The notes beneath the pieces are model-generated. The model saw only the letters and a list, made by a program, of their open reading frames with translations, ran no database searches and was not told the origin of the DNA. Both the position numbers and the translations under genes were made by a program. DNA of 37,230 nucleotides, from positions 1 to 37,230 of the forward strand of contig CANHUG010000003.1 in NCBI GenBank assembly GCA_947462995.1, in the 5' to 3' direction. Source of the stretch: Verrucomicrobiales bacterium (GTDB lineage: Bacteria; Verrucomicrobiota; Verrucomicrobiia; Verrucomicrobiales; V1-33). Of the stretch, positions 1,214 through 18,818 are shown piece by piece. Position 1 is the first letter of the stretch, and each line of letters begins with the position of its first letter.

Positions 1214-2179
1214 TCAGAAGGCGAGCAGCTCGCGGAGGGCGGTGGCGATGGCGGCTGCGGTGGGGCGGTGATTGGCCCAGAGGTTAGGGTGATAGGGAAT
1301 GGGGGTGTCGCGGGCGTTGAGGCGGCGGGGCGGGGCGTCGAGGAGGTGGAAACCGTCGGCGACGACGCGGCTGACGACTTCGGCGCTGACGCCGCCCCAT
1401 GGGAAGCTTTCGGCGACGGCGAGGAGACGGCCGGTGCGGGCGACGGAGGCGAGGATGGTGTCGGTGTCGAGGGGTTTGACGCTGCGGAGGTCGACGACTT
1501 CGATTTCCCAGCCGTCGTGGAGGAGATCGTCGGCGGCGCGAAGGCTTTCGTGGAGCATGGCGCTGCAGGTGACGACGGTGGCGTGGCGGCCGCCGCGGGC
1601 GATTCTGGCTTTGCCGATAGGGAGTCGATCCGTGGGCAGGGAGTCTGCCTTGAGGTGATAGTAGAGGAACTTGTGTTCGCAGAAGATGACGGGGTCGTCG
1701 AGGGCGACGGCGTCGAGGAGCATGGAGTAGGCGTCGCCGACGGTGGCGGGGGTGAGGACGATGAGGCCGGGGTAGTGGGCGTAGAGGCTTTCCATGCTCT
1801 GGCTGTGGAACGGGCCGCCGCCGCTGGTGCCGCCGCTGGGGAGGCGGATGACGAGCGGGCAGGGGACGCCGGTGCGCCAGAAGTGGGTGGCTGCCTGATT
1901 GACGATCTGGTTGAAGCCGATGCTGGAGAAGTCGGCGAACTGCATTTCGACGATGGGGCGCATGCCGCTGATGGCTGCGCCGACGGCCATGCCGACCATG
2001 GCGTCTTCGCTGATGGGGCTGTCGAGGACGCGGCCGGGGAAGTCTCGGGCGAGGTTCTTGGTGGCTTTGAAGGCGCCGCCGAAGGTGGCGATGTCCTGGC
2101 CGTAGATGAAGACGGACGGGTCGTCGCGCAGGGCCTTGGCCTGAGCTTCGCGGATGGCTTCCAGATAAGTGATGCTCAC
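1214..2179 (-). CDS. 2-oxoacid dehydrogenase E1 beta subunit
   Basis: ITYLEAIREA, GQDIATFGGAFKAT, DSPISEDAMVG, EMQFADF, GGPFHSQS, VDLRSVKPLD; directly upstream of E2. Confidence 0.95.
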   Translation of the reverse strand: MSITYLEAIREAQAKALRDDPSVFIYGQDIATFGGAFKATKNLARDFPGRVLDSPISEDAMVGMAVGAAISGMRPIVEMQFADFSSIGFNQIVNQAATHFWRTGVPCPLVIRLPSGGTSGGGPFHSQSMESLYAHYPGLIVLTPATVGDAYSMLLDAVALDDPVIFCEHKFLYYHLKADSLPTDRLPIGKARIARGGRHATVVTCSAMLHESLRAADDLLHDGWEIEVVDLRSVKPLDTDTILASVARTGRLLAVAESFPWGGVSAEVVSRVVADGFHLLDAPPRRLNARDTPIPYHPNLWANHRPTAAAIATALRELLAF

Positions 2180-2256
2180 GTCCCTTTACCCTCGCCCCGC
2201 GGGAGGCTGCGGTTCAAGCCGGAAAAGCGGGTCGGGGCGATGATCCGGGGGGTGGT

Positions 2257-2385
2257 GGCAGGGGAATGGAGAGGCAGAGGAATGCGGGTGGGGAGAGGAA
2301 GAGGCAGGGGAATGGGAGGCAGGGGAATGCGGGTAGGGAGAGGGAGAGGGAGGGGCAGGGGGATGCGGGTGGGGAGAGGGGGGAT
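2257..2385. repeat. Degenerate G-rich tandem repeat (GGCAGRGGAATG(CGGGTRGGGAGAGG) units)
   Basis: About five GGCAGRGGRATG starts; three are extended with CGGGTRGGGAGAGG. Confidence 0.7.
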
Positions 2386-2448
2386 GGTGGCATCGAGGCC
2401 CCCGTTTTGCGATTCGCCCGATGAGAATGGATGTCGGTTGGGGAATGA

Positions 2449-2484
2449 CGGGGAATGGGATAATCGGGCAGACCTCTTCGGGGG
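2449..2484 (+). repeat. Direct repeat copy 1 (CGGGGAATGGGATAATCGGGCAGACCTCTTCGGGGG)
   Basis: 34/36 identical to 3964-3999; the 29-bp core recurs at 4818-4846. Confidence 0.9.
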
Positions 2485-2485
2485 T

Positions 2486-2530
2486 CGGAAAGAAAGGGCG
2501 GCCAGAAACACTTAAGGTTTCTGACCGCCC
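2486..2530 (-). terminator. Intrinsic terminator of the micropeptide ORF
   Basis: Minus-strand RNA GGGCGGUCAGAAAC-loop-GUUUCUGGCCGCCC forms a 14-bp stem with one U.G pair (a C/A mismatch on the plus strand), followed by UUUCUUU. Confidence 0.8.
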
Positions 2531-2548
2531 CGCTAAGGTGATTCCACG

Positions 2549-2653
2549 TTATGCGGTGGATTCATCGGACACGTCATACTCCGGGCAACCTTTCTCGTCG
2601 GATATTTCTTCAGGGGGATCTTCAGGGGGATCTTCATCGTCGCTTTGGCTCAT
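2549..2653 (-). CDS. Putative 34-aa acidic micropeptide MSQSDDEDPPEDPPEEISDEKGCPEYDVSDESTA
   Basis: ATG at 2653, TAA at 2549-2551; A/C-rich leader (ACAAACCCAAAACCAAAACTCCCC-ATG); terminator 18 nt after the stop; below the ORF-track length cutoff. Confidence 0.55.
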   Translation of the reverse strand: MSQSDDEDPPEDPPEEISDEKGCPEYDVSDESTA

Positions 2654-2789
2654 GGGGAGTTTTGGTTTTGGGTTTGTATGTGGCTTGTCGCCACTCCTTC
2701 AATAACCCTTCAACGGACGCCTGCAATGCATTTTCTAGCGTTTAGTATGCATCAAGGCAACAATTTCTTGCAACGGAGATAATCCTTGC

Positions 2790-2814
2790 GCTGTACGGAT
2801 TTCATGCGTACAGC
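2790..2814. promoter_or_regulatory. Inverted repeat GCTGTACG-N9-CGTACAGC, candidate operator
   Basis: Perfect 8-bp arms ending 5 nt before the regulator ATG, in the divergent intergenic region. Confidence 0.5.
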
Positions 2815-2819
2815 TTCTG

Positions 2820-3914
2820 ATGAATCGATCTGAATTGACGGTTAAAGCTCTCCAGCTGCGCTACGGCGACCGTCGTCTTAAAAATTATGAAGTTGCTGAC
2901 GAGTTGGGACTGAAGGCATACGAGGTCTCTCGCTTAATCGACGCTGCGTGGAAATCTGGGGTTGTATCCATCCGAATAAATCAAGAAGGACTGGTCTCAG
3001 AAGACGATTTTGCCTCCGCTTTTAATCTAAATTGGGTCCGCTTTGTGGAAACCGTGGATCATTACACAGAACAGAAGAAGATCTTGGGTGAAGTGGCAGC
3101 TACCGAATTTGAACGCATAGTCCGCGCCGAGCCCCAAACGATAGCGCTTGGTGGTGGCGATAGTCTTCACCAAATGGTGCGGTCTCTTAAGTCTCGCTCA
3201 AGAGCCATTACGCTCGCCCCTCTCGCTCTCATTTGTCGGTCCATATATGGGAGGTCTTTCGATGGTGCGTTTGTTACCATGGAAGCAGCATCAATCTCTG
3301 ATCCAAGCCAATGCCGTGCGCGGGTTTGCGCCCTTCCGCCGTTATCTCCGGATAACGCAGAGGCGGCCATGCAGTTCACGGAGAGACTCTTTCACGAGAA
3401 TTCTGAAGTGAGGGCTGTTTTTCACGAGGCATTACACGCAAGCGCCATGTTTTTTGGAGTTTCCAATTACGGCGCCGAACCAGCCATTGCCGAAGCTCAT
3501 GAGCGAGTGGGCATTGGCAAGGCGGATATAAGCGCGATGCGCGCGGTCGGCCATTTAAACTTCTCTTTCTTCGATGAAAATGGGGCTGATGTGACGACAC
3601 TCCTTGCGAAGAAGAAAAAAATTAGAATATCATCCTCACCCAGTGATGCGCTTTACCCTGTAGACTCCAAAGATCGACATCCATTTCTTGCCGCCGTAAG
3701 TCTCGACGCCATCAAGAGAGCAGCAGAAAACAAAAAACGTGATGTTATTTTGGTTGCTGCGGGGGAACACAAACGCCATGCAATTTCTGCTGCGCTGAAT
3801 GCGGGCGTGGCGAACGCTGCAATAATTGACCTTGAAAACGCCCGGCAAATTTATCGGGAAAAGCTGCTTCGCTTCCAAGGAGTAGGACGCCTAGACAAGC
3901 CCGTGGGTCCTTGA
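2820..3914 (+). CDS. SorC/DeoR/CggR/LsrR-family transcriptional regulator (HTH + sugar-binding domain)
   Basis: N-terminal HTH (NYEVADELGLKAYEVSRLIDAAWKSGVVSIRI), IALGGGDSL, AVGHLNFSFFDENG, VILVAAGEHKRHAISAALNAGVANAAIID; lower GC than the flanks. Confidence 0.85.
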   Translation: MNRSELTVKALQLRYGDRRLKNYEVADELGLKAYEVSRLIDAAWKSGVVSIRINQEGLVSEDDFASAFNLNWVRFVETVDHYTEQKKILGEVAATEFERIVRAEPQTIALGGGDSLHQMVRSLKSRSRAITLAPLALICRSIYGRSFDGAFVTMEAASISDPSQCRARVCALPPLSPDNAEAAMQFTERLFHENSEVRAVFHEALHASAMFFGVSNYGAEPAIAEAHERVGIGKADISAMRAVGHLNFSFFDENGADVTTLLAKKKKIRISSSPSDALYPVDSKDRHPFLAAVSLDAIKRAAENKKRDVILVAAGEHKRHAISAALNAGVANAAIIDLENARQIYREKLLRFQGVGRLDKPVGP

Positions 3915-3963
3915 TCAATGCCCAAGAGGGGCATAAGTCGACAGGACGCTTCGGGCGGCGGTG

Positions 3964-3999
3964 CGGGGAATGGGATGATCGGACAGACCTCTTCGGGGG
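3964..3999 (+). repeat. Direct repeat copy 2
   Basis: CGGGGAATGGGATGATCGGACAGACCTCTTCGGGGG; two transitions relative to copy 1. Confidence 0.9.
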
Positions 4000-4033
4000 G
4001 ACTGATTCATCGGGCAGGTGGGCGCAAATGATT

Positions 4034-4705
4034 TCATCTATCGTTGGCCGATTCATCTTCACTATCCAATCCTGCCATTCCTCCGCCACCTCCTGCATCG
4101 CCGCCACCGCTGCGCTGTCCACCGCCCCCGGCGCGTCCACTACTGTCCTCGCTCCCGCCCGATTTGCTTTTTCCCCCGGAATTTTGCGGCCGGGTCGGTC
4201 CTTGTCTGGGAATTCGGAGATCTGTCGGGATGGGTTCGAGATCGAGAGCTTTGCGAATAAAATGCCGCAGCGAGATGACAAGGTCGTGTGTCGGTATATG
4301 GCGACCCTCCACCAGTTCCTGCGCGGCGAACGCTGCCAGACGCAGCTGTTCCTCTGTCCCGAGAAGAATGATGTCCGAGAGCGCCGATTCAACCGCATCG
4401 CGCATGCGCCGGCTCCGGTCCGAACTGGGGACGACTTCGACTCCCGAAGCACCGGGCAGCTGACGCAGTTCACGGAGGTGAGCAGGGTCCACTGAGAGAT
4501 CGCCTGTGAAAGAGCCTCCAAGCGTTTTGTAGGCGGCCATGAGAAGGCGAAGTCGCTCGTTGATCTGTCGGTTGGCCCGCTCGCGGCGCTGTTGGACCGT
4601 GGCCATTATCAGAAGGCGAATCCCCACTCCCATCACCGTCACCAGGGTGATCGCGAGGAGGGTGGAAAGAAAACCTTCGCCCGAGCTGAAATCGAGACTT
4701 TTCAT
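4034..4705 (-). CDS. Hypothetical membrane-anchored protein
   Basis: 223 aa; N-terminal hydrophobic helix, QQRRERANRQINERLR helical segment, Gly/Ser-rich tail; better protein-like composition than the overlapping ORFs. Confidence 0.8.
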   Translation of the reverse strand: MKSLDFSSGEGFLSTLLAITLVTVMGVGIRLLIMATVQQRRERANRQINERLRLLMAAYKTLGGSFTGDLSVDPAHLRELRQLPGASGVEVVPSSDRSRRMRDAVESALSDIILLGTEEQLRLAAFAAQELVEGRHIPTHDLVISLRHFIRKALDLEPIPTDLRIPRQGPTRPQNSGGKSKSGGSEDSSGRAGGGGQRSGGGDAGGGGGMAGLDSEDESANDR

Positions 4706-4817
4706 GTGGCCACTGTCATCGAGGCGGGATCGTTCTGAAAACGGGTTTTGAATTCATCAGGATCCACGATCTACGACTCCGACAAGGCGGAACGTGGGGT
4801 CAGGCGACATCAATGAT

Positions 4818-4846
4818 TGGGACAATCGGATAGACCTCTTTGGGGG
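4818..4846 (+). repeat. Direct repeat copy 3 (core only)
   Basis: TGGGACAATCGGATAGACCTCTTTGGGGG; 25/29 identical to each of copies 1 and 2, all differences are transitions. Confidence 0.8.
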
Positions 4847-4996
4847 ATTGGGGGGCCGCCGACCGGCGGGAGACAGATAGCCGACTGGCTGGCAGTAGGG
4901 CGAGCGAAGGGCGGTTAAAGCCGCGAGTTTTGTGGTTTGGGAGGGGTGGTTGTCGCATTCGGGCGGATTGATTCGATTCGCCAGCGTTTGTTCCCG

Positions 4997-5127
4997 TTAC
5001 CAGAGCACACCTTGCTTATACTCACGCCCTCTATCATCAACCAAGATGGAATCGACTCTCAGTTAATCCAGCTGACGAAGGAATGAGTGTGGTTGTGAGC
5101 CATCGATTTAAGATTCTTGTATTTCAC
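4997..5127 (-). pseudogene. Probable internally deleted gene-cassette remnant
   Basis: GTG start gives (M)KYKNLKSMAHNHTHSFVSWIN then TGA; an overlapping frame gives LRVDSILVDDRGREYKQGVLW-stop; AT-rich and just downstream of an attC-like site. Confidence 0.35.
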
Positions 5128-5146
5128 AACGGCGGAGTTGTTTAGG

Positions 5147-5203
5147 GGCGGACGTCAAGGCTCAGACGACGGCGGAGCCGTGGTCTGCGCCGTCGTATTC
5201 GGC
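5147..5203 (-). mobile_element. Degenerate integron attC-like site
   Basis: Minus strand GCCGAAT-acgacggcg-CAGACcACGGC-tcc-GCCGTcGTCTG-agccttgac-GTCCGCC: R''-like and R'-like ends around an imperfect hairpin. The upstream ORF reads into it (PNTTAQTT...), as cassette ORFs commonly do. Confidence 0.5.
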
Positions 5204-5535
5204 GCGTGCTTCTGTTTACGATGCAAGATATATGTCTGGCGGTTGTTCTCAGGAAAGGAAATCTCCTTATCTTCGTATCCACCGGCTCCGAGCAGGTAAG
5301 GCAGCCCGGGTGTCATGTCGTAGAGCGCAAGCCGACCTCGGGAGTCGGTGCTGTTCGCGGAGGGGGCGTCTCTTTGGAAGATCATGTTGCGAAGCAACAT
5401 CGGATAAGGTGCCCGCACTCCCGCCCCGCGGATGGGATTGCCGTGATCGTCGGTGACGACTATCGTCCGATGGGGAATCGAACGGCATCCGGCTACAGTT
5501 ATCGCGAGGAAAGTTAACAGTAGCAACTTGATCAT
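5155..5535 (-). CDS. Small lipoprotein, carboxypeptidase-regulatory/transthyretin-like beta domain
   Basis: Signal peptide with lipobox VAG-C; VVTDDHGNPIRGAGV...TDSRGR...AGGYE pattern. Confidence 0.7.
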   Translation of the reverse strand: MIKLLLLTFLAITVAGCRSIPHRTIVVTDDHGNPIRGAGVRAPYPMLLRNMIFQRDAPSANSTDSRGRLALYDMTPGLPYLLGAGGYEDKEISFPENNRQTYILHRKQKHAPNTTAQTTAPPSSEP

Positions 5536-5644
5536 CGTTTCTTGGGAGGACGGTTCGGATTAGGTGAAGTCGGGAGGGAGGCGTCGATGACAGGACAGGT
5601 GGTGTGCGAGCCTTTGGCTGAATCGGTTTTGATAGCCGGTGTGG

Positions 5645-6019
5645 TCATTTTGGCGTTGGCGTGAGAAGGTGAGCGAAGTTTTGGTCGGCGACCATGCGAG
5701 CGAACTCCTCTGGGCTAAGTGTGACGCCGGCCTGCTGTGCCCGCTGTTGGTTTGCAGCCCACATCCGGCGGAGAGACTCGTCCAAGGAGTCGTCGAGGTG
5801 AAGTGTGGATCGGAGAGTGGCACACCAATCTGTGCCACCACCGAAGACACGCTGAGTGGCAGACGCAGCCAACTGATCCTTGTCTGGCGCGAGGGTGCCG
5901 ATGGCGCTCAAGACGTAGTTCTCGAGCAGGATCAGCAGAGGACGGCCGTTGTAACGGCTAGGAGGTGATGATGGCTCGCTTGTCTTGCGGCGTCCGGGAA
6001 TGAAATCAAATAGGCCCAT
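5645..6019 (-). CDS. Hypothetical protein, 124 aa
   Basis: Likely start MGLFDF (ATG 6019); RYNGRPLLILLENYVL...LSPEEFARMVADQNF, all-helical and protein-like. Confidence 0.7.
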   Translation of the reverse strand: MGLFDFIPGRRKTSEPSSPPSRYNGRPLLILLENYVLSAIGTLAPDKDQLAASATQRVFGGGTDWCATLRSTLHLDDSLDESLRRMWAANQQRAQQAGVTLSPEEFARMVADQNFAHLLTPTPK

Positions 6020-6124
6020 GGTTCTTTTTCGGATGATATCACCAGGAGGGATTGCCGTCAAACTGGGGGGTGGGTTGGGTTATGTGGGGGGGAGACGGGG
6101 CGGGGATGGCTTGTTATGGGGTGT

Positions 6125-6286
6125 GGGGGACAGGAATGTCCCCCTCCTTTGGCGTGTGGGGATGAGGACGTGAGGGAGCACGTCCCTACCTGGTGCGTGG
6201 TGAGGAGGACCTTGGCGTGTGGGGATGAGGGGCTGGCAGGCGCACTTCGTGCGCAGGGAGAGCTGTAATTCTGACAGCAGTCCAGA
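6125..6286. repeat. Cluster of REP-like palindromes
   Basis: GGGGGAC-AGGAAT-GTCCCCC (6125-6144); GGACGTG-AGGGAG-CACGTCC-CTACC (within 6164-6190, GTAG-type on the minus strand); GCGCAC-TTC-GTGCGC; a 19-bp direct repeat TTGGCGTGTGGGGATGAGG at 6149 and 6212. Confidence 0.7.
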
Positions 6287-6337
6287 GCCTGCGGCTGCTG
6301 GTTCGGAGGGGGGCTTGAACGGAGAGGGGCCGATGGG

Positions 6338-7351
6338 TTAGGCCTGGTGTTTTTCCTGAGGAGGGGCGGGGCGGCGGCGGGATTCGGGGCGTGGGGCGAG
6401 TTGGGGTGCGGGGGTGGTGTGGTGGCCGTCGCGGACTTCGAGGAGGACGCGGGTGAAGTCTTCCATGGAGGCGACGCGGAGGGCTCCGATGCGGTTGAGG
6501 ACCTGGCTGTAGGCGTCGGCTGACTGGCCTCCGATGATGATGGGGACCTCGTCTGGGAGGAGACTGCGGAGACGGACCATCTGGTCGGGGAGGTCTGGGT
6601 CGTCGGCTGGGTAGATGATGCTGAGGGCGACGGCGCGGATGTTGTTCATGATGACGGCGCCGACGATTTCTTCTGCGGGGAGGGAGGGGCCGAGGTAGGT
6701 GACGTTCCAGCCGGATTTGCGGGCGAGGCCGGCGGCGATGGTGGCTCCCATTTCGTGGAGTTGGCCGGCAGGGGTGGTGACGAGGAGACGTGGGGCGGAT
6801 TCCGGGGTGTTGACCGGGCGGAGGGTTCTGGCGAGATAGTCTTTGATGGCGCTGGTGGCGCAATGTTCCTGGGCGGCGGTGATTTCGCCGCGTTGCCAGT
6901 CGGCTCCGAGCCGATGGAGGAGCGGGACGAGGAGACGTTCGAGCATGCCGGAGTGGCCCATGGCGAGCATGGATTCGTCGAGTGTGCGTTCGAGGGAAGG
7001 GATGTCGTAGGAGCGGATGGCTTCGATGGCGCGTTCTCCGAAGGTGGCGGCGTCGACTGGGGTGGAGAGACGGCCTTGTGGGAGGGGAGCGCCGGGGAGG
7101 TCGCCGAGGCGGTCGACCATGGAGCGGAGTTCCGGGGTGGGGAGACGGGCGATCTGGCCGATATTGAGGCCGGAGCGGGTGAGTCGGGCGAGCATGGAGA
7201 GCCGGTCGACTTCTTCGTCGGTGTAGAGGCGGCGCTGGGTGAGGCTGCGTCCGGGTTGGACGGCGGCGTAGCGTTTCTCCCACATGCGGACAAGGTGAGG
7301 GCTGAGCCCTGTGCGGAGGGCGACGGCCTTCATGTTGTGGAGAGGTTCCAT
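6338..7351 (-). CDS. MerR-family regulator with cobalamin-binding domain (CarH/LitR-like)
   Basis: Start MEPLHNMKAVALRTGLSPHLVRMWEKRY (MerR HTH, RRLYT); W-x9-EH (WQRGEITAAQEH); GQLHEMG; YLGPSLP; IIIGG. The track's 638-aa N-terminal extension is antisense of selB. Confidence 0.9.
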   Translation of the reverse strand: MEPLHNMKAVALRTGLSPHLVRMWEKRYAAVQPGRSLTQRRLYTDEEVDRLSMLARLTRSGLNIGQIARLPTPELRSMVDRLGDLPGAPLPQGRLSTPVDAATFGERAIEAIRSYDIPSLERTLDESMLAMGHSGMLERLLVPLLHRLGADWQRGEITAAQEHCATSAIKDYLARTLRPVNTPESAPRLLVTTPAGQLHEMGATIAAGLARKSGWNVTYLGPSLPAEEIVGAVIMNNIRAVALSIIYPADDPDLPDQMVRLRSLLPDEVPIIIGGQSADAYSQVLNRIGALRVASMEDFTRVLLEVRDGHHTTPAPQLAPRPESRRRPAPPQEKHQA

Positions 7352-7561
7352 GGGATTGGCAGGGGAGAACGCGGGAGATTGTGGAGGAGAATGGGTGATG
7401 GGGAGGCGGGATGTAAATATGAACCTGCCGTAGATGATTGCCGGGAACAACGACTGGGGGAGGGGAGGGGATGCTCCGAGAGCGCGGGTGGTGGGTCCGG
7501 GTTTGTGCTGATTGACGGAAAGGGGTGGAGGGATGGTGGGGCGGGGCGATAGAATGGGGGG

Positions 7562-9481
7562 ATGCGGGATTTCATTCTTGGGACGGCTGGGCACATTGAC
7601 CATGGGAAGAGCACCTTGGTGGAGCGGCTGACGGGGACGGATCCGGACCGGTTGCCGGAGGAGAAGGCGCGTGGGATGACGATTGACCTTGGGTTTGCGC
7701 GATTGGTGCTGGCGGATCCGGCTGGGGGGGAGTTTGAGGTTGGGGTGGTGGATGTGCCTGGGCATGCGGATTTTGTGAAGAACATGGTGGCTGGGGTGGG
7801 GCGATTGGATGCGGTGCTGCTGGTGGTGGCGGCGGATGACGGGTGGATGCCGCAGACGGAGGAGCATGTGCAGATTCTGGAGTATCTGGGGGTGAGGCGC
7901 GGGGTGGTGGCGCTGACGAAGGCGGATGTGGTGGAGGATATCGGGCGGGTGGTGGAGGAGGTGCGGGGGAGACTGGAGGGGACGGTGTTTGCGGGGATGC
8001 GGGTGGTGCCGGTGGCGGCGTTGCGCGGGGAGGGGCTGGGGGAATTGCGGGAGGAATTGGCGCGTGTGCTGGCGGGGGTGCCGGAGAGCGGGGAGGCGGG
8101 GAAGCCGCGACTGCCGGTGGACCGGGTGTTTTCGCCGGTGGGGATTGGGACGGTAGTGACGGGGACGCTGGGTGGCGGGGAATTGGGGCGCGGGGATGAG
8201 GTGGTGGTGCAGCCGTCGGGGGAGCGGGTGCATGTGAGGGGATTGCAGCGGCATTACCGGCCGGTGATGCGGGTGGGGTCGGGGAGTCGGGTGGCGGTGC
8301 AGTTGTCGGATGTGGGGGTGGGGGAGCGAGGGGTACGCGGGGTGGTGGGGCGCGGGGACACGGTGGCGCTGTTAGGGATGGGGGAGGCGCATGACACCTT
8401 GGATGCGTTGCTGGTGATGACGGCGCGCGGGGACGGCGGGGAGCGGCGGTTGCGGCACGGGCAGCGGGTGGTGTGGCACCATGGGAGTGCGGAGGTGGAG
8501 GCGCAGGTGCTGCTGCAGGGTGAGCGGGAGTTAGTGGCGGGTGGTCGGGTGGTGGCGCAGTTGAGGTTTGAGGAGAAGGTGTATGCGTTCAGCGGCGATC
8601 GGTTTGTGGTGCGGGATGCGGCGCGGCGGCGGACGCTGGCTGGGGGAGTGGTGCTGGATGCGGAGGCGGAGCGGGCGAGGTTCCGGGATCCGAGGTTTCA
8701 GGTGTGCCGTGCGGCGTGGGGGGAAGCGGCGGACTATGTGGAGCGGGTGGTGGCGGCGCTGCTGGAGCGCGACGGGGCGCTGGAGCGGAGAGGATTGCTA
8801 GTGAAGAGCCGGTGGAGTGCGGAGGAGATTGCGGGAGCGGGGATGGCGCTGGTGGCGAAGGGTGTGGCGGAAGTGGCGGGCGGGTGGCTGGTGGGGTCCG
8901 GGTGGTGGCGGGAGCGGGTGGGAGTGGCTGGGGAGATGGTGCGGGCGTGGCACCGCGGGCATCCTGAGCGCGTGGGGATGGATGCGGCGGAATTTCAGCG
9001 AGGGTTGGTGGCGCTGGTTCCGGACGAGCGGCTGGTTGGGGGATTGGTGGCGGCGCTGGCGGAGGTGGGGTTTATCCGGAGCGGGAGGTATGTGAGGCAT
9101 GTGGCGCATCGGCCGGAGTTGCCGGGGCCGCTGGTGGCGGCGGGGAAGCGATTGCGGTCGCTGCTGGCGCTGAATGCGGTGGAGCCGCCGGGGCCTGGGG
9201 AACTGGTGCGGGATGCGGCGGATCGGCAGGCGCTGCAGTTTCTGGTGGAGACTGGGGAGGCGGTGGTGCTGGATCCGAAGGCGGTGATTTCAGCGGAAGG
9301 GTTGGCGGTGCTGACGCGGCGGATTGAGGGGCAGTTGCGGGAGCGCGGGCGGGCGACGGTCGCGGAATTGCGGGACGGGACAGGGACGACGCGGCGGATT
9401 CTGATTCCGCTGCTGGAGCGGCTGGACCGCGAAGGCGTGACCGTGCGCGACGGTGACTGGCGGCGGCTGAGGGACGGCTGA
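7562..9481 (+). CDS. selB: Selenocysteine-specific translation elongation factor
   Basis: GTAGHIDHGKS, DPDRLPEEKARGMTIDLGFA, DVPGH, TKAD, PVDRVF...GTVVTGT; C-terminal winged helix TRRILIPLLERLDREGVTVRDGDWR. Confidence 0.95.
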   Translation: MRDFILGTAGHIDHGKSTLVERLTGTDPDRLPEEKARGMTIDLGFARLVLADPAGGEFEVGVVDVPGHADFVKNMVAGVGRLDAVLLVVAADDGWMPQTEEHVQILEYLGVRRGVVALTKADVVEDIGRVVEEVRGRLEGTVFAGMRVVPVAALRGEGLGELREELARVLAGVPESGEAGKPRLPVDRVFSPVGIGTVVTGTLGGGELGRGDEVVVQPSGERVHVRGLQRHYRPVMRVGSGSRVAVQLSDVGVGERGVRGVVGRGDTVALLGMGEAHDTLDALLVMTARGDGGERRLRHGQRVVWHHGSAEVEAQVLLQGERELVAGGRVVAQLRFEEKVYAFSGDRFVVRDAARRRTLAGGVVLDAEAERARFRDPRFQVCRAAWGEAADYVERVVAALLERDGALERRGLLVKSRWSAEEIAGAGMALVAKGVAEVAGGWLVGSGWWRERVGVAGEMVRAWHRGHPERVGMDAAEFQRGLVALVPDERLVGGLVAALAEVGFIRSGRYVRHVAHRPELPGPLVAAGKRLRSLLALNAVEPPGPGELVRDAADRQALQFLVETGEAVVLDPKAVISAEGLAVLTRRIEGQLRERGRATVAELRDGTGTTRRILIPLLERLDREGVTVRDGDWRRLRDG

Positions 9482-9501
9482 GGGCGGTTGAGCCGCGGGG
9501 A

Positions 9502-13488: not shown

Positions 13489-16407
13489 TCAGCGGCGGCG
13501 GCTGGGGCGGTCGTCGGAGTTAGGGCGGCTGGGGCGATTCCGTGGGGAGACGTCCTGGCGGGCGATGGTGACTTGGCGTTCCGGGGCGAAGCGCCGGGAG
13601 TTGGAGGATTGTTCTTTGGAGCGCTGGCGTTCTGCGGCTTCGCGTTGTTGTTCAGCGGCGCGTTGACGTTGCTCGGCTTCGCGTTGTTGTTCAGCGGCGC
13701 GTTGACGTTGCTCGGCTTCGCGTTGTTGTTCCATGGCGCGCTGACGTTGCTCGGCCTCGCGTTGTTGTTCCATGGCGCGTTGGCGTTGTTCGGCTTCGCG
13801 TTGCTGTTCAGCGGCGCGCTGACGTTGCTCGGCCTCGCGTTGTTGTTCTGCGGCGCGCTGACGTTCTGCGGCTTCGCGCTGTTGTTCCATGGCGCGCTGG
13901 CGTTCTGCGGCTTCGCGTTGTTGTTCGAGGGCTTCGCGGCGAGCGGCGGCGGCTTGCTGCTGGCGTTGGTTGTCTTCGGCTTCGCGGGCGGCTTGTTCTT
14001 TGAGGGCCTGTTGGCGTGCGAGGGATTCGCGGCGTGAGTTTTCGAGTTGGGCCTGACGTTCGTTGGCGGCGGCGGCGGCGGCTTGTTCGTCGCGGGCGCG
14101 GGCGGCGAGTTCGGCGCGTTGGCGATCGACGGCCTCGCGTTGTTGTTCAGCGGCGCGCTGGCGTTCGGTGGCTTCGCGTTGTTGTTCGAGGGCTTCGCGG
14201 CGGGCGGCGGCCTGCTGCTGGCGCTGGGTGTCGTCGTTGGCGTTAGCGGCTTGTTCGTCGCGGGTGCGGGCGGCGAGTTCGGCGCGTTGGCGATCGACGG
14301 CTTCGCGTTGTTGTTCTGCGGCGCGCAGACGTTCGGTGGCTTCGCGTTGTTGTTCGAGGGCTTCGCGGCGAGCGGCGGCGGCCTGCTGCTGGCGATTGGT
14401 GTCGTCGGCGGTGGTGTCGGCTTGTTCTTTGGAGGCTTGCTGGCGGGCGAGGGATTCGCGGCGGGAGTTTTCGAGCTGGGCCTGACGTTCGTTGGCGGCG
14501 GCGGTGGCGGCTTGTTCCTCGCGGGTGCGGGCGGCGAGATCGGCGCGCTGGCGTTCGGCGGATTCGCGTTGTTGCGTTAGGGCCTCGCGGCGAGCGGCGG
14601 CGGTTTGCTGCTGGCGATTGGTGTCTTCGGTGTCGCGGGCGGCTTGTTCCTTGGAGGCTTGCTGGCGGGCTGAGGATTCGCGGCGTGAGCTTTCGAGCTG
14701 GGCCTGACGTTCGTTGGCGGCGGCAGCGGCGGCTTGTTCCTCGCGGGTGCGAGCGGCGAGCTCGGCGCGCTGACGTTCGGTGGCTTCGCGTTGTTGTTCC
14801 GCGGCGCGCTGGCGTTCGGTGGCTAGCTGCTGGCGCTGGGTGTCGTCGGTGGCGGTGGCGGTTTGATCCTCGCGGGGTTGCTGGTCGGTGGGGGTGTTAG
14901 GAGCGGGCTGCGGAGCTGGCGCGGATGGGGCGACGGCGTCTGGTTTGGCTGGGGAGCGGTCGGCGACGAGCGGGCGGGTGGCGGGGCGCTGAGGTTTGGT
15001 GACGGGGGCCGGGGTGGAGTCGGGGGAATCGGACTCGGGTTCGGCGACGGGGATGGCGCGAGGGATGCGTTGAGGGGGTGCGCTGGCGGTGGTTGGGGCG
15101 TCTGGTTTCGGGAGTTGGGCGAGGGATTCGCGGAGTGTGGCGATGCGTGTCTGGCGATCGGCGACGCGGCGGCCGGATTCGGATTCGGTGGCGAGGCGAG
15201 CGGAGTTGAGCTGGGCTTCGCGGTGGGAGCGGAACTGGGAGGCGAGTTTAGGGGAGAGACCGGACGGGCCGCGGACGATGTCACGCGAAGGGAGTGGACC
15301 GGCGGAATGGGCGGGGCGTTGTGAGGCGTTCCATGGTGTGTGGACGGCGGGTGCGAAGCAGGTGAGTTTTTTGCCTTCGCGTTGCCAGCGGTGCGGGCTG
15401 CCGTCGTGGTTAGGGCGGAAAGGATCACGGACGAGCGAGCAGACCTCGATGTCGCGTTTGAGGCGGGAGCGGAGCCATGAGCGTTCCGGGCCGCCGCAAT
15501 GGACGCTGCCGCGGTTGATGACGAGGCGGGTGATGTCGCGGGAGTTGGAGCAGCGAAGCCGGTTGTGGATGGGTGCTTCGCACCACTGAAGGATGGGTTG
15601 GTCGAAGCAGCGGGTGGGGACGAAGCACCATGATTCGGTGGCGAGGCCCCATGATGAGGAGCTGCTCCATGTGCCGTTGTTGAGGCAGAGCGTTTCGGGA
15701 GGGAGCGGGCACCAACCGACGTGGGAATCGCTGCTGCGCCATGCGACCCATGCGGGTGCCCAGACGTCGCCGGGGATCCAGACCCAGCCGCAGCCGCGGA
15801 CGATGGCCCAGCGGCCGTAGTGATAGGTGGCCCAGCCGAAGGGTTCATCGGAGCACCATGTCCAGCCGGCGTCGGTGGAGGTCCATGAGCCGACGGAATA
15901 GGGACGCCATGAGGAAGCGGAGGCGGCCTGAGGTTGCCAGACGAAGCCGTAGTCGGCGCTTTCGAACCAGCGGCCGTGGGGTTCGAGTTCGTTGTAGAAG
16001 AGATTGTAGTCGGCGCGTGGCGTGGTGGGGACGTCGGCGGTGTCTTTGGAAGATTGCGAAGATTCAGAGGATTTCGGGAGCGTGCGGGAGTTGGCGGCTT
16101 CGGATTCGCGGAGCCAGAGGGCGCGTTCGCGTTCGAGGAGTTTTTCTTCGGCGGCGAGTTCGGCTTCGGTGGCGGCGAGTTTGGCTTCGGCGGCTTCGCG
16201 CTGGAGACGTGCTTCGGTGAGGGCGAGTTCTGCTTCGCGCTGGGCGAGGGCTTCGCTTTGGGCGGCGAGTTCTTCCGGGGAGGGGCCTTGGGGTGCGGCT
16301 GGGGGGGGAGCCGGTGGGGGTGGCTGGGAGGCGGAGGGCGTTGGGGATTTTCCGCAGCTGGCGAGGGCGAGGGAGAGTGCGGCGAGGGCGGGCAGAGGGG
16401 ATTTCAT
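13489..16407 (-). CDS. Lipoprotein with DUF6600-like Trp-rich domain and long Q/R/E/A repeat coiled coil
   Basis: Lipobox LAS-C; FYNELEPHGRW...WRPY...GWTWCSDEPFGWATYHYGRW...WAPAWVAWR...GWCPLPP; C-terminal EQQREAEQRQRA repeats. Confidence 0.85.
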   Translation of the reverse strand: MKSPLPALAALSLALASCGKSPTPSASQPPPPAPPPAAPQGPSPEELAAQSEALAQREAELALTEARLQREAAEAKLAATEAELAAEEKLLERERALWLRESEAANSRTLPKSSESSQSSKDTADVPTTPRADYNLFYNELEPHGRWFESADYGFVWQPQAASASSWRPYSVGSWTSTDAGWTWCSDEPFGWATYHYGRWAIVRGCGWVWIPGDVWAPAWVAWRSSDSHVGWCPLPPETLCLNNGTWSSSSSWGLATESWCFVPTRCFDQPILQWCEAPIHNRLRCSNSRDITRLVINRGSVHCGGPERSWLRSRLKRDIEVCSLVRDPFRPNHDGSPHRWQREGKKLTCFAPAVHTPWNASQRPAHSAGPLPSRDIVRGPSGLSPKLASQFRSHREAQLNSARLATESESGRRVADRQTRIATLRESLAQLPKPDAPTTASAPPQRIPRAIPVAEPESDSPDSTPAPVTKPQRPATRPLVADRSPAKPDAVAPSAPAPQPAPNTPTDQQPREDQTATATDDTQRQQLATERQRAAEQQREATERQRAELAARTREEQAAAAAANERQAQLESSRRESSARQQASKEQAARDTEDTNRQQQTAAARREALTQQRESAERQRADLAARTREEQAATAAANERQAQLENSRRESLARQQASKEQADTTADDTNRQQQAAAARREALEQQREATERLRAAEQQREAVDRQRAELAARTRDEQAANANDDTQRQQQAAARREALEQQREATERQRAAEQQREAVDRQRAELAARARDEQAAAAAANERQAQLENSRRESLARQQALKEQAAREAEDNQRQQQAAAARREALEQQREAAERQRAMEQQREAAERQRAAEQQREAEQRQRAAEQQREAEQRQRAMEQQREAEQRQRAMEQQREAEQRQRAAEQQREAEQRQRAAEQQREAAERQRSKEQSSNSRRFAPERQVTIARQDVSPRNRPSRPNSDDRPSRRR
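13618..14850 (-). repeat. Intragenic tandem repeats (39/42-bp units plus longer nested units)
   Basis: Repeated plus-strand GGCTTCGCGTTGTTGTTC blocks; protein units AEQQREAEQRQRA and NERQAQLE.SRRES.ARQQA.KEQA (x3). Confidence 0.9.
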
Positions 16408-16473: not shown

Positions 16474-17736
16474 TCAGAGTTGTCCGTTGAGGGCCATGGC
16501 GAGGATTTCCATGGTGTGGAGGGGTTTGGGGGCGTTTGGTTTGGGGCTGAGGTGGAGACGGATCTGGGAGAGACAGCCGATGTTGCCCATGGCGACGAAG
16601 TCGGCGGCGGTGGCGGCGATGTTAGTGGCCTTGAGGGCACCGAGGGCGGCGGCGGTTTCCGGTTCGTCGATGTTGTAGGTGCCGGCGCTGCCGCAGCAGG
16701 TATCGCCGTCTGATATTTCGCAGAGAGTGACGTCAGGGATCTGGCGGAGGAGCGAGCGAGGGGCGCTGCGGACGCCCTGGGCGTGGCTGAGGTGGCAGGC
16801 GTCGTGATAGGCGATGCGGAGCGGGCGGGATGGGGGTGGGATGGGCGGGAGGCCGAGGCGGAGGAGGTAGGAGGTGACGTCTTCGACTTTGGCGGCGAAG
16901 GCTGAGGCGGCGGATTCTTCCGGGCAGCCTTTGAGGATGAGCGGGTATTCGTGGAGGCCGGAGCCGCAGCCTGCGGCGTTGGTGAGGATGGCGTCGACGT
17001 TGTCGGGGAAGGCCTTGAGATTGCGGCGAGCGGCGGCGCGGGCGTCGTCGCCGGCACCGACGTGCCATGCGAGGGCGCCGCAGCAGCCTTGGGATTCGGG
17101 GATGACGACCTCGATTCCGGAGCGAGTGAGGACGGCGATGGTGGCGGCGTTGATTTCCGGGGCGAGGACCTGCTGGGCGCAGCCTGCGAGGAGGGCGACG
17201 CGGCCGCGGCGAGGAGACTGGGCGTGGTGGAAGGGGGCGAGGGGTTGAGCTGGCGGGAGGGAGGCTGGGAGGAGCTGGAGCATGGGGCGGAACGCCTTTG
17301 GCACGAGCCCGTGGAGCGGTTTGGTGGCGATGCCGAGACGGGCGGCGAGCCGGAATCGGTTAGGGAAGGGGAGTGTGGTGAGGAGAGTGAGACGCCGGAG
17401 TTTTTCGGTGAGGGAGCGGGAGCGGCGGTGATCGGACCATTCGCGGAACGGGCTGATGAGATCGCGGTATTTGACGCCGCTGGGGCAGGCGGTTTCGCAG
17501 GCGAGACATCCGAGACAGCTGTCGGTGTGGGGGAGAGCCTGTTCGAGCGGGAGGGAGCCTTCGAGGACGTCCTTGATGAGGAGGATGCGGCCGCGGGGGG
17601 ATTCGGCTTCTTTTCCGTGGACTTGATAGGTGGGGCAGGCGGGGAGGCAGAATCCGCAATGGACGCAAGTCTGGACGGCGTCGGCCATGGCCTGGCCGGC
17701 TGGTCCTGAGGAGAGGACGGGGATGGCTTGCTTCAT
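16474..17736 (-). CDS. glcF: Glycolate oxidase iron-sulfur subunit
   Basis: CVHCGFCLPACP, CLGCLACETACPSGV, two CCG domains (GCCGAL, TCCGSAGTYN), YHDACHL. Confidence 0.93.
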   Translation of the reverse strand: MKQAIPVLSSGPAGQAMADAVQTCVHCGFCLPACPTYQVHGKEAESPRGRILLIKDVLEGSLPLEQALPHTDSCLGCLACETACPSGVKYRDLISPFREWSDHRRSRSLTEKLRRLTLLTTLPFPNRFRLAARLGIATKPLHGLVPKAFRPMLQLLPASLPPAQPLAPFHHAQSPRRGRVALLAGCAQQVLAPEINAATIAVLTRSGIEVVIPESQGCCGALAWHVGAGDDARAAARRNLKAFPDNVDAILTNAAGCGSGLHEYPLILKGCPEESAASAFAAKVEDVTSYLLRLGLPPIPPPSRPLRIAYHDACHLSHAQGVRSAPRSLLRQIPDVTLCEISDGDTCCGSAGTYNIDEPETAAALGALKATNIAATAADFVAMGNIGCLSQIRLHLSPKPNAPKPLHTMEILAMALNGQL

Positions 17737-18818
17737 GGGGTTGAGAGCGGGAGGAATTTGCGGAGCGGGTCGAGAGCGGAGGAGACGCGGGCTTCCATGA
17801 GGGAAGCGTTAGGGATGCCGGGGCGGACGGGGCCGGGGCCGCGGAGGCGGAGACCGGAGAGGCCGAGATTGGATAGGATGGCGTCGAGGGCGGGGGCGTC
17901 GGGCGAGGAGATGAGGGCGAGATTTCCGGCCATGCTGTAGTGTCTGGCGGCACCGATGGAGGCGAGGGCGGCGTCGAGGTCGGGGATGCGGTGGAGCGTG
18001 GTGGGGACCTTGACGAGCGGGGAGAGGGCGTCGGTTCCGGGGAAGATGAGATCGTTGAGGGGATTCCAGAAGGAAGCGGCTTCGTGGTCGGAGAGGAGTT
18101 GGGCGGCTGGGCCGAAGGAGGCGGCGATGCGGTTGATGCGGGAGGCGAGGGCGGAGGCGTCGCCCATGAAGCGAGCGAGGATGCGGATGGGCGGGCCTGG
18201 GAAGATTTCGGCGGCTTCGACTTCCCATGTCTGGGCGGAGAGGTGGGCGATTTTTTCGAGGGCGTCGGGGAGAGAGGAGCAGGTGATGGCGATGGACTGG
18301 CGTGCTTCGGGGGCTGGGAAGACCTTGAAGGAGAGTTCTGTGAGGATGCCGAGGCGGCCGATGGAGCCGGTGAAGAGTTTGGGGAAGTCGAAGCCGGCGG
18401 CATTTTTGACGACCTTGCCGCCGCCGCGGACGATCTGGCCTGAGCCGTCGACCCAGCGGATGCCGATGAGGAAGTCGCGGATGCCGCCGTAGCGGAGCCT
18501 GCCGGGGCCGCTCATGGCGGCGGCGACGGATCCTGCGAGGGTGGCACCGGCGCTGGCGAGGGGAGGGTCGAAGGGGAGGTACTGGCCGTTGGCGGCGAGG
18601 AGGGAGGCGACGTCGCGGAGGGGGGTGGCGGCGCGGGCGGTGAAGGTGTATTCGGTGGGCTCGTATTCGACGATGCCTGAGAAGGCGCGGAGGTCGAGGA
18701 GGGTGACGCCTTCTGAGGGGGAGAGGGCGGGTTTGGTGCGGCCGGCGAAGGGGAGCACGCGGGTTTCGGCGCGGACGGCGTCGCAGAGTGCGGGTTCGTC
18801 GGGGGGATGGAGAATCAT
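17733..18818 (-). CDS. glcE: Glycolate oxidase FAD-binding subunit
   Basis: GIVEYEPTEYTFTARA, QYLPFDPP, GPGRLRYGGIRDF, GGKVVKNAAGFDFPKLFTGSIGRLG; overlaps the glcF start; start chosen at ATG 18818 behind AGGAG. Confidence 0.88.
   Translation of the reverse strand: MILHPPDEPALCDAVRAETRVLPFAGRTKPALSPSEGVTLLDLRAFSGIVEYEPTEYTFTARAATPLRDVASLLAANGQYLPFDPPLASAGATLAGSVAAAMSGPGRLRYGGIRDFLIGIRWVDGSGQIVRGGGKVVKNAAGFDFPKLFTGSIGRLGILTELSFKVFPAPEARQSIAITCSSLPDALEKIAHLSAQTWEVEAAEIFPGPPIRILARFMGDASALASRINRIAASFGPAAQLLSDHEAASFWNPLNDLIFPGTDALSPLVKVPTTLHRIPDLDAALASIGAARHYSMAGNLALISSPDAPALDAILSNLGLSGLRLRGPGPVRPGIPNASLMEARVSSALDPLRKFLPLSTP

Follow-up and report, generated by a model that had tools for sequence, protein, structure and literature searches.

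Strand-polar interspersed repeats at a variable locus of a Verrucomicrobiales genome and their match to a Y1 (HUH) transposase gene family

Genes for TIRYT transposases are flanked by terminal inverted repeats (TIRs) that share GGGGWSAS, and some TIR families occur singly, in dimers and in groups (Di Nocera et al. 2013, PMC3733652). Quentin et al. 2018 equated TIRYT with TnpA-Y1 subclass 2.1 and described Y1 transposases, the enzymes of IS200/IS605 elements, as acting on the lagging-strand template (PMC6006769). In the portions of that paper used here, no sequences resembling repetitive extragenic palindromes (REPs) were found for subclasses 2.1 and 2.3, whose key motifs are NH[YF]H, WE and Y[IV]xLNP; subclass 2.3 is further marked by a beta3:alphaC insertion of ~55 amino acids (aa), a long tail, a median length of 325 aa and several diverged copies per genome. 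In Neisseria, NIME arrays and minimal mobile elements combine 20-nt dRS3 repeats whose copy number varies by strain with alternative gene sets at syntenic sites, and the repeats have been hypothesized to be sites of a recombinase that promotes exchange of the adjoining DNA (PMC1797815). Here, we analyze three direct repeats at 2449-4846 of a 37,230-nt stretch of DNA (the window) from a Verrucomicrobiales bacterium (contig CANHUG010000003.1 of assembly GCA_947462995.1), which delimit two modules of unlike content. A reading made from the letters of the window (the sequence-only reading) had proposed that these repeats are recombination sites of a non-integron cassette system served by a trans-acting recombinase.

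Our analysis favors a different account. The three repeats are ordinary members of a lineage-specific interspersed family of ~100 to 140 copies per genome, and they match the terminal repeat of a multicopy RAYT/TIRYT-like Y1 (HUH) transposase gene, a "TIRtron" arrangement; together with the mechanism proposed below, we give this reading a probability of about 0.65. A stand-alone new cassette system is not supported, and a genome-wide interspersed repeat of the REP/TIR type takes its place.

The likeness to a TIRtron lies in several features of the source genome (G000). It has a RAYT-like Y1 gene with an HUH motif and a catalytic tyrosine; at two of the three loci tested, inverted repeats unlike GTAG REPs bracket this gene. 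The heptamer GGGACAG occurs upstream of the gene in 29 of 65 loci of the family, to be set beside the GGGGWSAS given in the text, as distinct from the figure, of the published account. The terminal repeat is also dispersed, at moderate abundance, both singly and in groups. G000 differs in that its copies are co-oriented in every cluster, lie with one exception on one replication-type strand and form no inverted dimers, in that its six paralogues are old, ~354 aa long and equipped with a ~55-aa insertion and a long tail, and in its host phylum, Verrucomicrobiota. In size and copy number, the transposase is nearer to subclass 2.3, for which the cited portions of PMC6006769 report no associated repeats. 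Its motifs, its length, a gap of ~58 residues in its family match and the presence of six diverged copies agree, in a comparison of listed traits, with the features tabulated there for subclasses 2.1 and 2.3.

Other systems share less. With REP/REPIN-RAYT systems, G000 has in common ~100 short intergenic repeats, a class 2 (Y---NP) Y1 transposase and covariation of gene and repeat (PMC6006769); its unit, however, has neither the GT[AG]G foot nor a stable palindrome, the inverted doublets of REPINs, the replicating unit in those systems, are missing, and the transposase has six paralogues, whereas the RAYT of a REPtron is single copy (PMC5581495) and vertically inherited. IS200/IS605 elements show the same HUH/tyrosine chemistry, a lagging-strand action that gives a strand-oriented distribution, and ends recognized on one strand (PMC6006769). 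The G000 protein instead has Y---NP rather than Y---Q and 354 rather than ~150 aa, and its paralogues are diverged rather than near identical; a stable hairpin is lacking, and no tnpB was seen beside the paralogues. NIME arrays are the nearest described behavior in functional terms, being dynamic intergenic arrays with alternative DNA at syntenic sites, but dRS3 is dyad symmetric, the proposed enzyme is a phage transposase or recombinase (PMC1797815), and neither the sequence nor the enzyme is related to those of the G000 system. Integrons resemble the locus in having one site per module, all in the same orientation, with small promoter-independent cargo; they differ from it in that G000 has no structured attC-like site and no linked integrase, and has ~100 dispersed sites with spacings down to 21 nt.

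The repeat family in the source genome and its relatives

A repeat search of the window identified three copies on the + strand, at 2449-2484 (the reference), 3964-3999 (34 of 36 positions identical, 94%) and 4811-4846 (78%). The 29-mer consensus of the sequence-only reading matches with 0 mismatches at 2456-2484, 3971-3999 and 4818-4846. The window holds no other match to it at ≤3 mismatches, and 100 dinucleotide shuffles gave 0 matches. Within the 29-mer, the three copies differ by transitions only. The three same-orientation repeats and their transition-only differences had thus been described correctly. The remark that there was no other copy holds for the window and fails for the genome, which has two further near matches to the 29-mer, on contigs C296 and C136, and about 100 copies of its core.

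G000 is a metagenome-assembled genome (MAG) of 4.02 Mb in 503 contigs, 75.6% complete, and the window is its contig C3. The 15-nt core GRYAGACCTCTTYGG at ≤1 mismatch had 97 matches on 38 contigs, compared to 3 for the reversed pattern, and a profile search found 106 copies at E≤0.01 on 35 contigs, compared to 1 in the reversed genome. The conserved unit is ~23 nt long and reads YAAKNR-GACAGACCTCTTCGG-GG. Genes were called with a rough home-made caller (2,908 genes; coding fraction, 0.856), which misses atypical genes such as the SorC gene of the window and mis-called the region 6341-9481; by these calls, 89 of the 106 copies are outside genes. The sequence-only reading had named a wide scatter of copies among core genes, as for an ordinary REP, as a result that would refute its proposal, and this is the result that the whole-genome search returned.

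The 106 copies form 40 clusters, 24 of which are multicopy (2 to 12 copies each); none of the 24 mixes orientations. Many copies are 21 to 70 nt apart, with the smallest spacings at 21 to 28 nt, and most are either this closely spaced or solitary and carry no cargo. Copies 21 to 70 nt apart are too close to bound gene cassettes. On C123, 12 copies occupy ~440 nt at spacings of 22 to 70 nt, and the intervening pieces are themselves repeated. A CRISPR-like reading of the dense arrays was rejected on the irregular spacing and the repeated "spacers" of C123, cas genes not being part of the search. The repeat is unlike attC or a CRISPR repeat, as had been claimed: it has no attC-like structure, and array spacing is irregular.

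Nearly all copies (105 of 106) are on the G-rich strand of their contig, while the core is not itself G rich (4 G, 5 C). The median per-contig absolute GC skew of G000 is 0.36, and genes of both strands and the DNA between genes are skewed alike (0.36, 0.34 and 0.33), which makes the skew a property of the whole strand, of the kind that replication produces. The G-rich strand is also the coding strand of a ribosomal-protein operon on C106. This one operon agrees with the G-rich strand being the leading strand, with the sequence of the lagging-strand template, since leading strand and lagging-strand template have the same sequence. A literature search, judged by leading titles, found no account of extreme GC skew in Verrucomicrobia.

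Counts of the 15-mer in 41 genomes of the order were 97 in G000, 117 in G001, 141 in G007, 59 in G004 and 25 in G003, all of one genus, and at most 13 in any of the remaining genomes (reversed-pattern controls, 0 to 18). Counts of the 12-mer GACAGRCCTCTT were 98 in G000, 138 in G001, 136 in G007, 56 in G004 and 51 in G003, followed by 22 in G005, 15 in G010 and ≤8 in the other seven genomes of the genus (controls, 0 to 6). Amplification is thus confined to one subclade of the genus, G000, G001, G004 and G007, with fewer copies in G003, G005 and G010. Copy number also changes at orthologous sites: one orthologous array has six copies in G000, three in G007 and two in G004, with unrelated spacers. 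On the loci compared, G001, G004 and G007 had strong skew and G003, G005 and G009 a weaker one, and the value was ~0 in G013, G008, G006, G011 and G012; in this small sample of kin genomes, the ranking by skew is the ranking by repeat abundance.

The array at G000 C21:9250-10050 sits upstream of a conserved terminator and a gene with a Gly/Met-rich tail end. Its ortholog at G004 C26:23300-24000 has a left neighbor gene different from that in G000 and G007.

Some features of the copies would suit a host regulatory or structural element, either a protein-binding site or a cUUCGg hairpin in a small RNA with a part in termination or mRNA stability, which would be conserved for this function and only incidentally near a transposase. 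The copies are intergenic, C-UNCG-G-like loops recur among the variants (CTTCGG, CTACGG, CTGCGG and CTCCGG), and in the relative G009 a TTGACA-like hexamer that precedes the transposase gene overlaps with the core. We nevertheless regard such an element as very improbable. The CCTC-TTCG-GGGG mini-hairpin pointed out in the sequence-only reading exists and folds, but it is no more stable than shuffled sequence (z of -0.27, -0.72 and -1.23 for the three copies), and an Rfam search over 2000-6500 at E≤1 gave no match. All four arrangements relative to neighboring genes occur (10, 8, 6 and 4 of 28 evaluable clusters), which argues against a dedicated promoter or terminator. Orientation tracks the replication-type skew and not transcription, and the rapid change of copy number at orthologous sites and the restriction to a subclade are unlike a conserved regulatory site.

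The candidate partner transposase and its upstream repeats

G000 contains six intact paralogues of the Y1 transposase gene, on C184, C100, C135, C36, C338 and C26, which encode proteins of 352 to 354 aa with 92 to 95% amino acid identity. All six have the HUH motif NHFH and the tyrosine motif YIDLNP; the protein also has the motif LWEGRY. The Pfam Y1_Tnp score is 40.5 bits (cutoff, 23), and the match to the NCBIfam model of REP-associated tyrosine transposases is split by the gap of ~58 residues (70-128). Judged by a synonymous divergence (dS) of 0.33 to 0.58 and a ratio of nonsynonymous to synonymous divergence (dN/dS) of 0.07 to 0.11, the paralogues are old copies under purifying selection. 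The ~354-aa protein has at least 7,960 relatives, mostly on short contigs, and several sources name them RayT or transposase. Every one of the 14 genomes of the genus has a Y1_Tnp match, and the mere presence of the domain therefore does not discriminate.

A copy of the repeat family (E≤0.01) lies within 1 kb of five of the six paralogues, compared to 80 of all 2,908 genes. Homology among the paralogues spans the open reading frame (ORF) and ~60 nt upstream. A degenerate copy (GACAGGCCTCTT...) precedes the ATG by 85 to 130 nt, in the orientation of the gene, in four of the six, and these four include both genes on the C-rich strand. Of three G000 loci tested, two have the gene between inverted core pairs, C184 (18 nt, 89%) and C135 (14 nt, 93%). 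On C184, the transposase gene itself also lies between co-oriented copies. For the sequence-only reading, which had called for a trans-acting enzyme and for co-occurrence of the repeats with a recombinase or an HUH transposase, the HUH (Y1) transposase is the best candidate partner, and no tyrosine or serine recombinase is linked. None of the three Phage_integrase (tyrosine recombinase) genes of G000 shares a contig with a repeat copy, 0 resolvase (serine recombinase) genes were found in this incomplete genome, and the contigs of its five other Y1 genes are free of copies. The IS110 family was rejected as a partner; it matches in 7 of the 14 genomes of the genus without relation to motif abundance and is absent from G004, G007 and G003.

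The repeat upstream of the gene and the repeat dispersed in the genome covary between species. In G009 (61% identity), GACAGACCTCTT lies ~45 nt before the ATG in both copies examined, and units of the GACAGACCTCTT type are found upstream of the gene in G001. Three to four GGACAGGCCTTTT units precede copy b of the gene in G003, and GGACAGGCCTTTT is dispersed 32 times in G003 and 12 times in G005, compared to 2 in G000 and 0 in G009. In G013 (49 to 53% identity), the repeat upstream of the gene is another one, CATGTTACC, present as one to seven tandem units at five of five copies; RCATGTTACCYG is dispersed 21 times in G013, 0 times in G000 and once in G011 (reversed-pattern control, 0).

The G013 units are ~16 to 20 nt long and end in CATGTTACC, followed by a conserved GGGAACTTGCAAAGAAAGGCGGTTGACTT (loci L040, which is G013 C21:46400-50400, L043 and L039). 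Other MAGs have arrays of other short units at the same upstream place, with AACAGGCCACACC in L064-L068 and GTATTACAA in L134.

The association was also tested family-wide on 80 loci of the transposase family from many Verrucomicrobiota, 65 of them usable upstream and 50 downstream. The commonest upstream 7-mer was GGGACAG. The 29 of 65 loci given above have it in the orientation of the gene in the last 200 nt before the ATG; it was inverted in 4 of 65 and rare further upstream (0 of 59 at -1000 to -800 and 2 of 62 at -700 to -500). The shorter GGACAG was found upstream in 37 of 65 loci. In the 300 nt past the stop codon, 13 of 50 loci had the inverted CTGTCC, compared to 0 of 50 with GGACAG in forward orientation. 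The G000 unit mostly reads (T/C)(G/A)GACAG, and only GGACAG or GACAG of the heptamer is retained. From these sequence comparisons, the dispersed G000 unit is best read as the upstream terminal repeat of the gene family, amplified as solo co-oriented copies.

Variable DNA beside the copies

The part of the window in which the three copies lie has the following features.

2250-2400, + strand: G-rich degenerate repeat tract (GGCAGGGGAATGSGGGTGGGGAGAGG-type), directly 5' of copy 1
2449-2484, + strand: repeat copy 1, core GGCAGACCTCTTCGG at 2467-2481; orthologous copy in G001, G007 and G004
2495-2531, - strand: terminator-like hairpin of 15 pairs with a T-rich tail, at the left end of module 1; serves the micro-ORF
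2552-2653, - strand: acidic micro-ORF of 34 aa (MSQSDDEDPPEDPPEE...), read from the sequence; no Pfam match
2820-3914, + strand: SorC/DeoR-type regulator of 364 aa (Pfam Sugar-bind PF04198, 3.1e-19), low GC
3964-3999, + strand: repeat copy 2, core at 3982-3996; left boundary of the unit common to G004
4034-4705, - strand: ORF of 223 aa with an N-terminal hydrophobic segment (by eye); DNA 93.5% identical in G004 C16
4811-4846, + strand: repeat copy 3, core at 4829-4843, CTTTGG variant
4862-4955, + strand: stretch past copy 3 alignable with G004; the right end of the shared unit is about here, not at the copy
4956-6213, no strand: remainder of the low-skew variable island, ORFs at 5155-5535 and 5645-6061 (-), no Pfam match
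6214-6330, + strand: belongs to another dispersed repeat family, unrelated to the first; the variable region has its right edge here

The module contents (terminator, micropeptide, SorC regulator and 223-aa ORF) are as the sequence-only reading had them, and the terminator does stand next to copy 1, the hairpin (2531-2495, - strand) ending 10 nt from it. The foreign composition ascribed to module 1 was also confirmed: its GC content is 0.47 to 0.54 with a GC skew of ~0, compared to 0.65 to 0.73 and 0.18 to 0.58 in the flanks, and the window from 2.5 to 6.1 kb as a whole is a compositional island (GC, 0.47 to 0.62; skew near 0). The SorC regulator has atypical codon usage and was not called as native coding sequence. 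A search of 151 genomes of the order gave no other SorC gene, one match of 28% identity excepted. The 223-aa ORF has no Pfam or NCBIfam match.

The locus was compared with its counterparts in relatives. The left flank (1-2317, E2/E1beta) and the right flank (6227-9500, MerR/B12 regulator and SelB) are 91 to 96% identical in G001, G004 and G007, and the interior is absent from all three save for module 2. Homology with the three relatives runs through copy 1 and stops a few bases 3' of the unit. Past this point, G000 continues into module 1, and G001 has a different segment of ~640 nt with another copy at its far end. G007 and G004 have ~95 nt in common before a second copy, after which they part from each other. 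Module 2 (3972-4745) is 93.5% identical in G004 contig C16, where it begins at a copy in a different context. The G004 alignment resumes past a degenerate copy 3 and runs to ~4955, and the DNA differs on both sides of this ~1-kb unit. The left neighbor of module 2 in G004 is orthologous to G000 C148, and the adjacencies of E1beta, C148 and module 2 contradict each other between G007 and G004. The island at 4956-6213 is absent at the DNA level from the five relatives searched.

Logan contigs of four runs from other studies (X8, X9, X10 and X13) were also examined; such contigs drop rare variants. Module 1 was uncovered in X9, X10 and X13, and module 2 in X10 as well, which was not counted as absence. 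In related strains (~97% identical), 4158-5745 is unbroken, which shows copy 3 to be stably placed; their copy has T>C at 4841. The island 4956-6213 is contiguous with module 2 in X9 and X13. An X13 contig matches the window from 3963 rightwards and is unrelated before it, a break exactly at the start of copy 2. The circular junctions that the sequence-only reading had suggested looking for did not appear: the contigs of the four runs hold no copy-to-copy or circle joint, a result silent on rare events. A back-joint of 4845 to 2249 in X8 was rejected as an excision joint, since it reproduces the arrangement at G000 C234:4059 (a copy, then "ggatggaga", then the G-rich tract) and hence comes from another locus.

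Four further G000 contigs were compared with G001, G004 and G007. On C22, homology blocks end at 18293 and 9525, adjoining copies at 18287 and 9538; on C25, they end at 16542 and 16548, adjoining a copy at 16512; and on C21 (9487-9762) and C18 (5037 and 5281), clusters lie in gaps between conserved blocks. Over the five stretches, each intergenic gap was compared with each relative; a single homology block spanned the gap in 0 of 8 comparisons with a copy and in 35 of 54 without one (Fisher p = 0.0007), a difference that is indicative only, as it comes from three loci in kin genomes and the gaps with copies are longer. It is thus partly supported that the copies mark sites of DNA replacement, enriched where gene content differs between sister species. 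For the earlier idea of recombination sites bounding the modules, this means that the breakpoints at copies 1 and 2 stand, as cargo boundaries in relatives too, and that a dedicated three-site array does not; the right edges lie ~100 nt past copy 3 and, for the whole variable region, at the different repeat of 6214-6330.

These breakpoints bear on two other explanations. In a true cassette system, a module together with one copy would be moved whole, as a single-stranded circle, by a Y1 transposase acting in trans and would enter the genome again on the 3' side of another copy. Variable DNA that in three relatives begins almost directly 3' of copy 1, the exact bounding of the foreign module 1 by copy 1 and 3963/3964, the failure to find this module in relatives, the alternative segment between two copies in G001, the start of module 2 at a copy in another context and the transposase gene between co-oriented copies on C184 would all fit. 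Such a system is still improbable. Module 2 alone turned up in two contexts, and on the right it does not end at a copy; the island's right edge is a different repeat; most copies bound no cargo; and the joints that it predicts were missing from the four runs, the X8 back-joint belonging to another locus.

Alternatively, the copies could be passive hot spots, short repeats that are transposase derived or selfish in another way and at which turnover comes from homologous or illegitimate recombination among the dispersed copies, replication slippage in the arrays and relaxed constraint in repeat-rich DNA between genes, with no site-specific cutting. This explanation, which we consider possible but on the unlikely side, draws on boundaries at unrelated repeats (6214-6330 and the 210-nt family indel at C18:8963-9338), on the many breakpoints without a copy, and on arrays that vary by whole units, as expected of slippage; the Neisseria NIME arrays have been proposed to act partly in this way in the cited text (PMC1797815). 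Two properties of the copies speak against it. Complete co-orientation and polarity, together with the species-specific match to the gene end, need an oriented, sequence-specific spreading, at least of the copies as such. Moreover, an identity of 15 to 23 nt is short for RecA-dependent exchange.

Several observations concern other parts of the locus. The G-rich tract at 2250-2400 is kept in place in G001, G007 and G004; like tracts are dispersed in those genomes, which have many short matches to window 2246-2390. The micro-ORF contains, at 2586-2653, a 12-nt tandem unit (GATCTTCAGGGG-type) that codes for EDPP on the - strand, and a metagenome contig of X8 has one extra unit placed behind 2606. 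The family of 6214-6330 (~100 nt) has 94 copies of at least 60% of its length on 56 contigs of G000, each reading in the one direction along the G-rich strand, and >150 matches in G001, G004 and G007; depth over it in X8 is 520 to 640, compared to ~10 in the flanks. A third dispersed repeat of ~210 nt (G000 C18:8967-9180) has 21 copies, all polar, and forms an insertion/deletion difference against G007 C508 (C18:8963-9338). Further right, 6341-7300 (-) encodes a regulator with a MerR helix-turn-helix and a B12-binding domain (CarH/LitR-like set PF13411, PF02607 and PF02310), and the divergent gene at 7562-9481 (+) encodes a SelB-like elongation factor. A large - strand gene (13492-16407) contains long in-frame tandem repeats at 13570-14900, with periods of 39 nt (nine copies) and ~168 to 261 nt.

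Proposed mechanism and its meaning

On the favored reading, the transposase would recognize the unit and cut one strand while it is single stranded during replication, the G-rich strand being the probable lagging-strand template. Such cutting would lead to the spread of solo copies and short tandem arrays in one orientation only. Each copy would then be a preferred place where DNA directly 3' is inserted, lost or exchanged, and turnover of cargo would be due to the transposase and not to general recombination. The two modules would be variable DNA between neighboring copies: module 1 an apparent recent foreign insertion between copies 1 and 2, and module 2 a unit that starts at a copy and is also present elsewhere in a sister species.

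A number of findings weigh against this reading. On the side of the enzyme, the score to NCBIfam NF047646 (66.9 bits) is below the curated cutoff of 80, the gene family also occurs in motif-poor genomes, so that its presence alone does not predict amplification, and G004 has 56 to 59 copies of the repeat and a single 80-aa fragment of the gene in a 75%-complete assembly. No copy at E≤0.01 lies within 1.5 kb of the paralogue on C36, and that on C100 has no inverted core pair around it. As to polarity, the assignment of the G-rich strand as leading depends on a single ribosomal-protein operon, and two unrelated families are equally polar (94 of 94 for the 6214-6330 type and 21 of 21 for the 210-nt family), so polarity is a property of the interspersed repeats of G000 and not specific to the 23-nt family. 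At the breakpoints, 19 unspanned comparisons had no copy. The contigs of the four runs also show no copy-to-copy joint that would point to cutting of the units by the enzyme.

A bolder form of the proposal holds that the 23-nt unit is the site at which a verrucomicrobial TIRYT-type Y1 transposase recognizes and cleaves single strands and that any DNA between two co-oriented units on the lagging-strand template can be excised and put back 3' of a different unit, which would amount to a replication-coupled, non-integron cassette system capturing foreign genes such as the SorC module. We see this as a long shot. If true, it would tie the burst of the family in one subclade to long-lived single-stranded DNA at the replication fork, which would also produce the extreme skew, and would explain the strict strand polarity of every interspersed repeat family in G000.

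For genome annotation, the repeat family accounts for assembly breaks at copies and for differences in gene order beside them. For the enzymes, the clade offers a clear candidate substrate. Y1 transposases of the TIRYT type and of subclasses 2.1/2.3 are widespread, as the many relatives of the G000 protein illustrate, and have no demonstrated substrate; here, a 23-nt unit occurs in species-specific variants that track the gene, and its near-perfect strand polarity is the expectation for single-strand chemistry. The clade also provides natural cases of foreign or relocated DNA whose start coincides with a unit. What these enzymes do is thus open to direct test with oligonucleotides and mini-elements.

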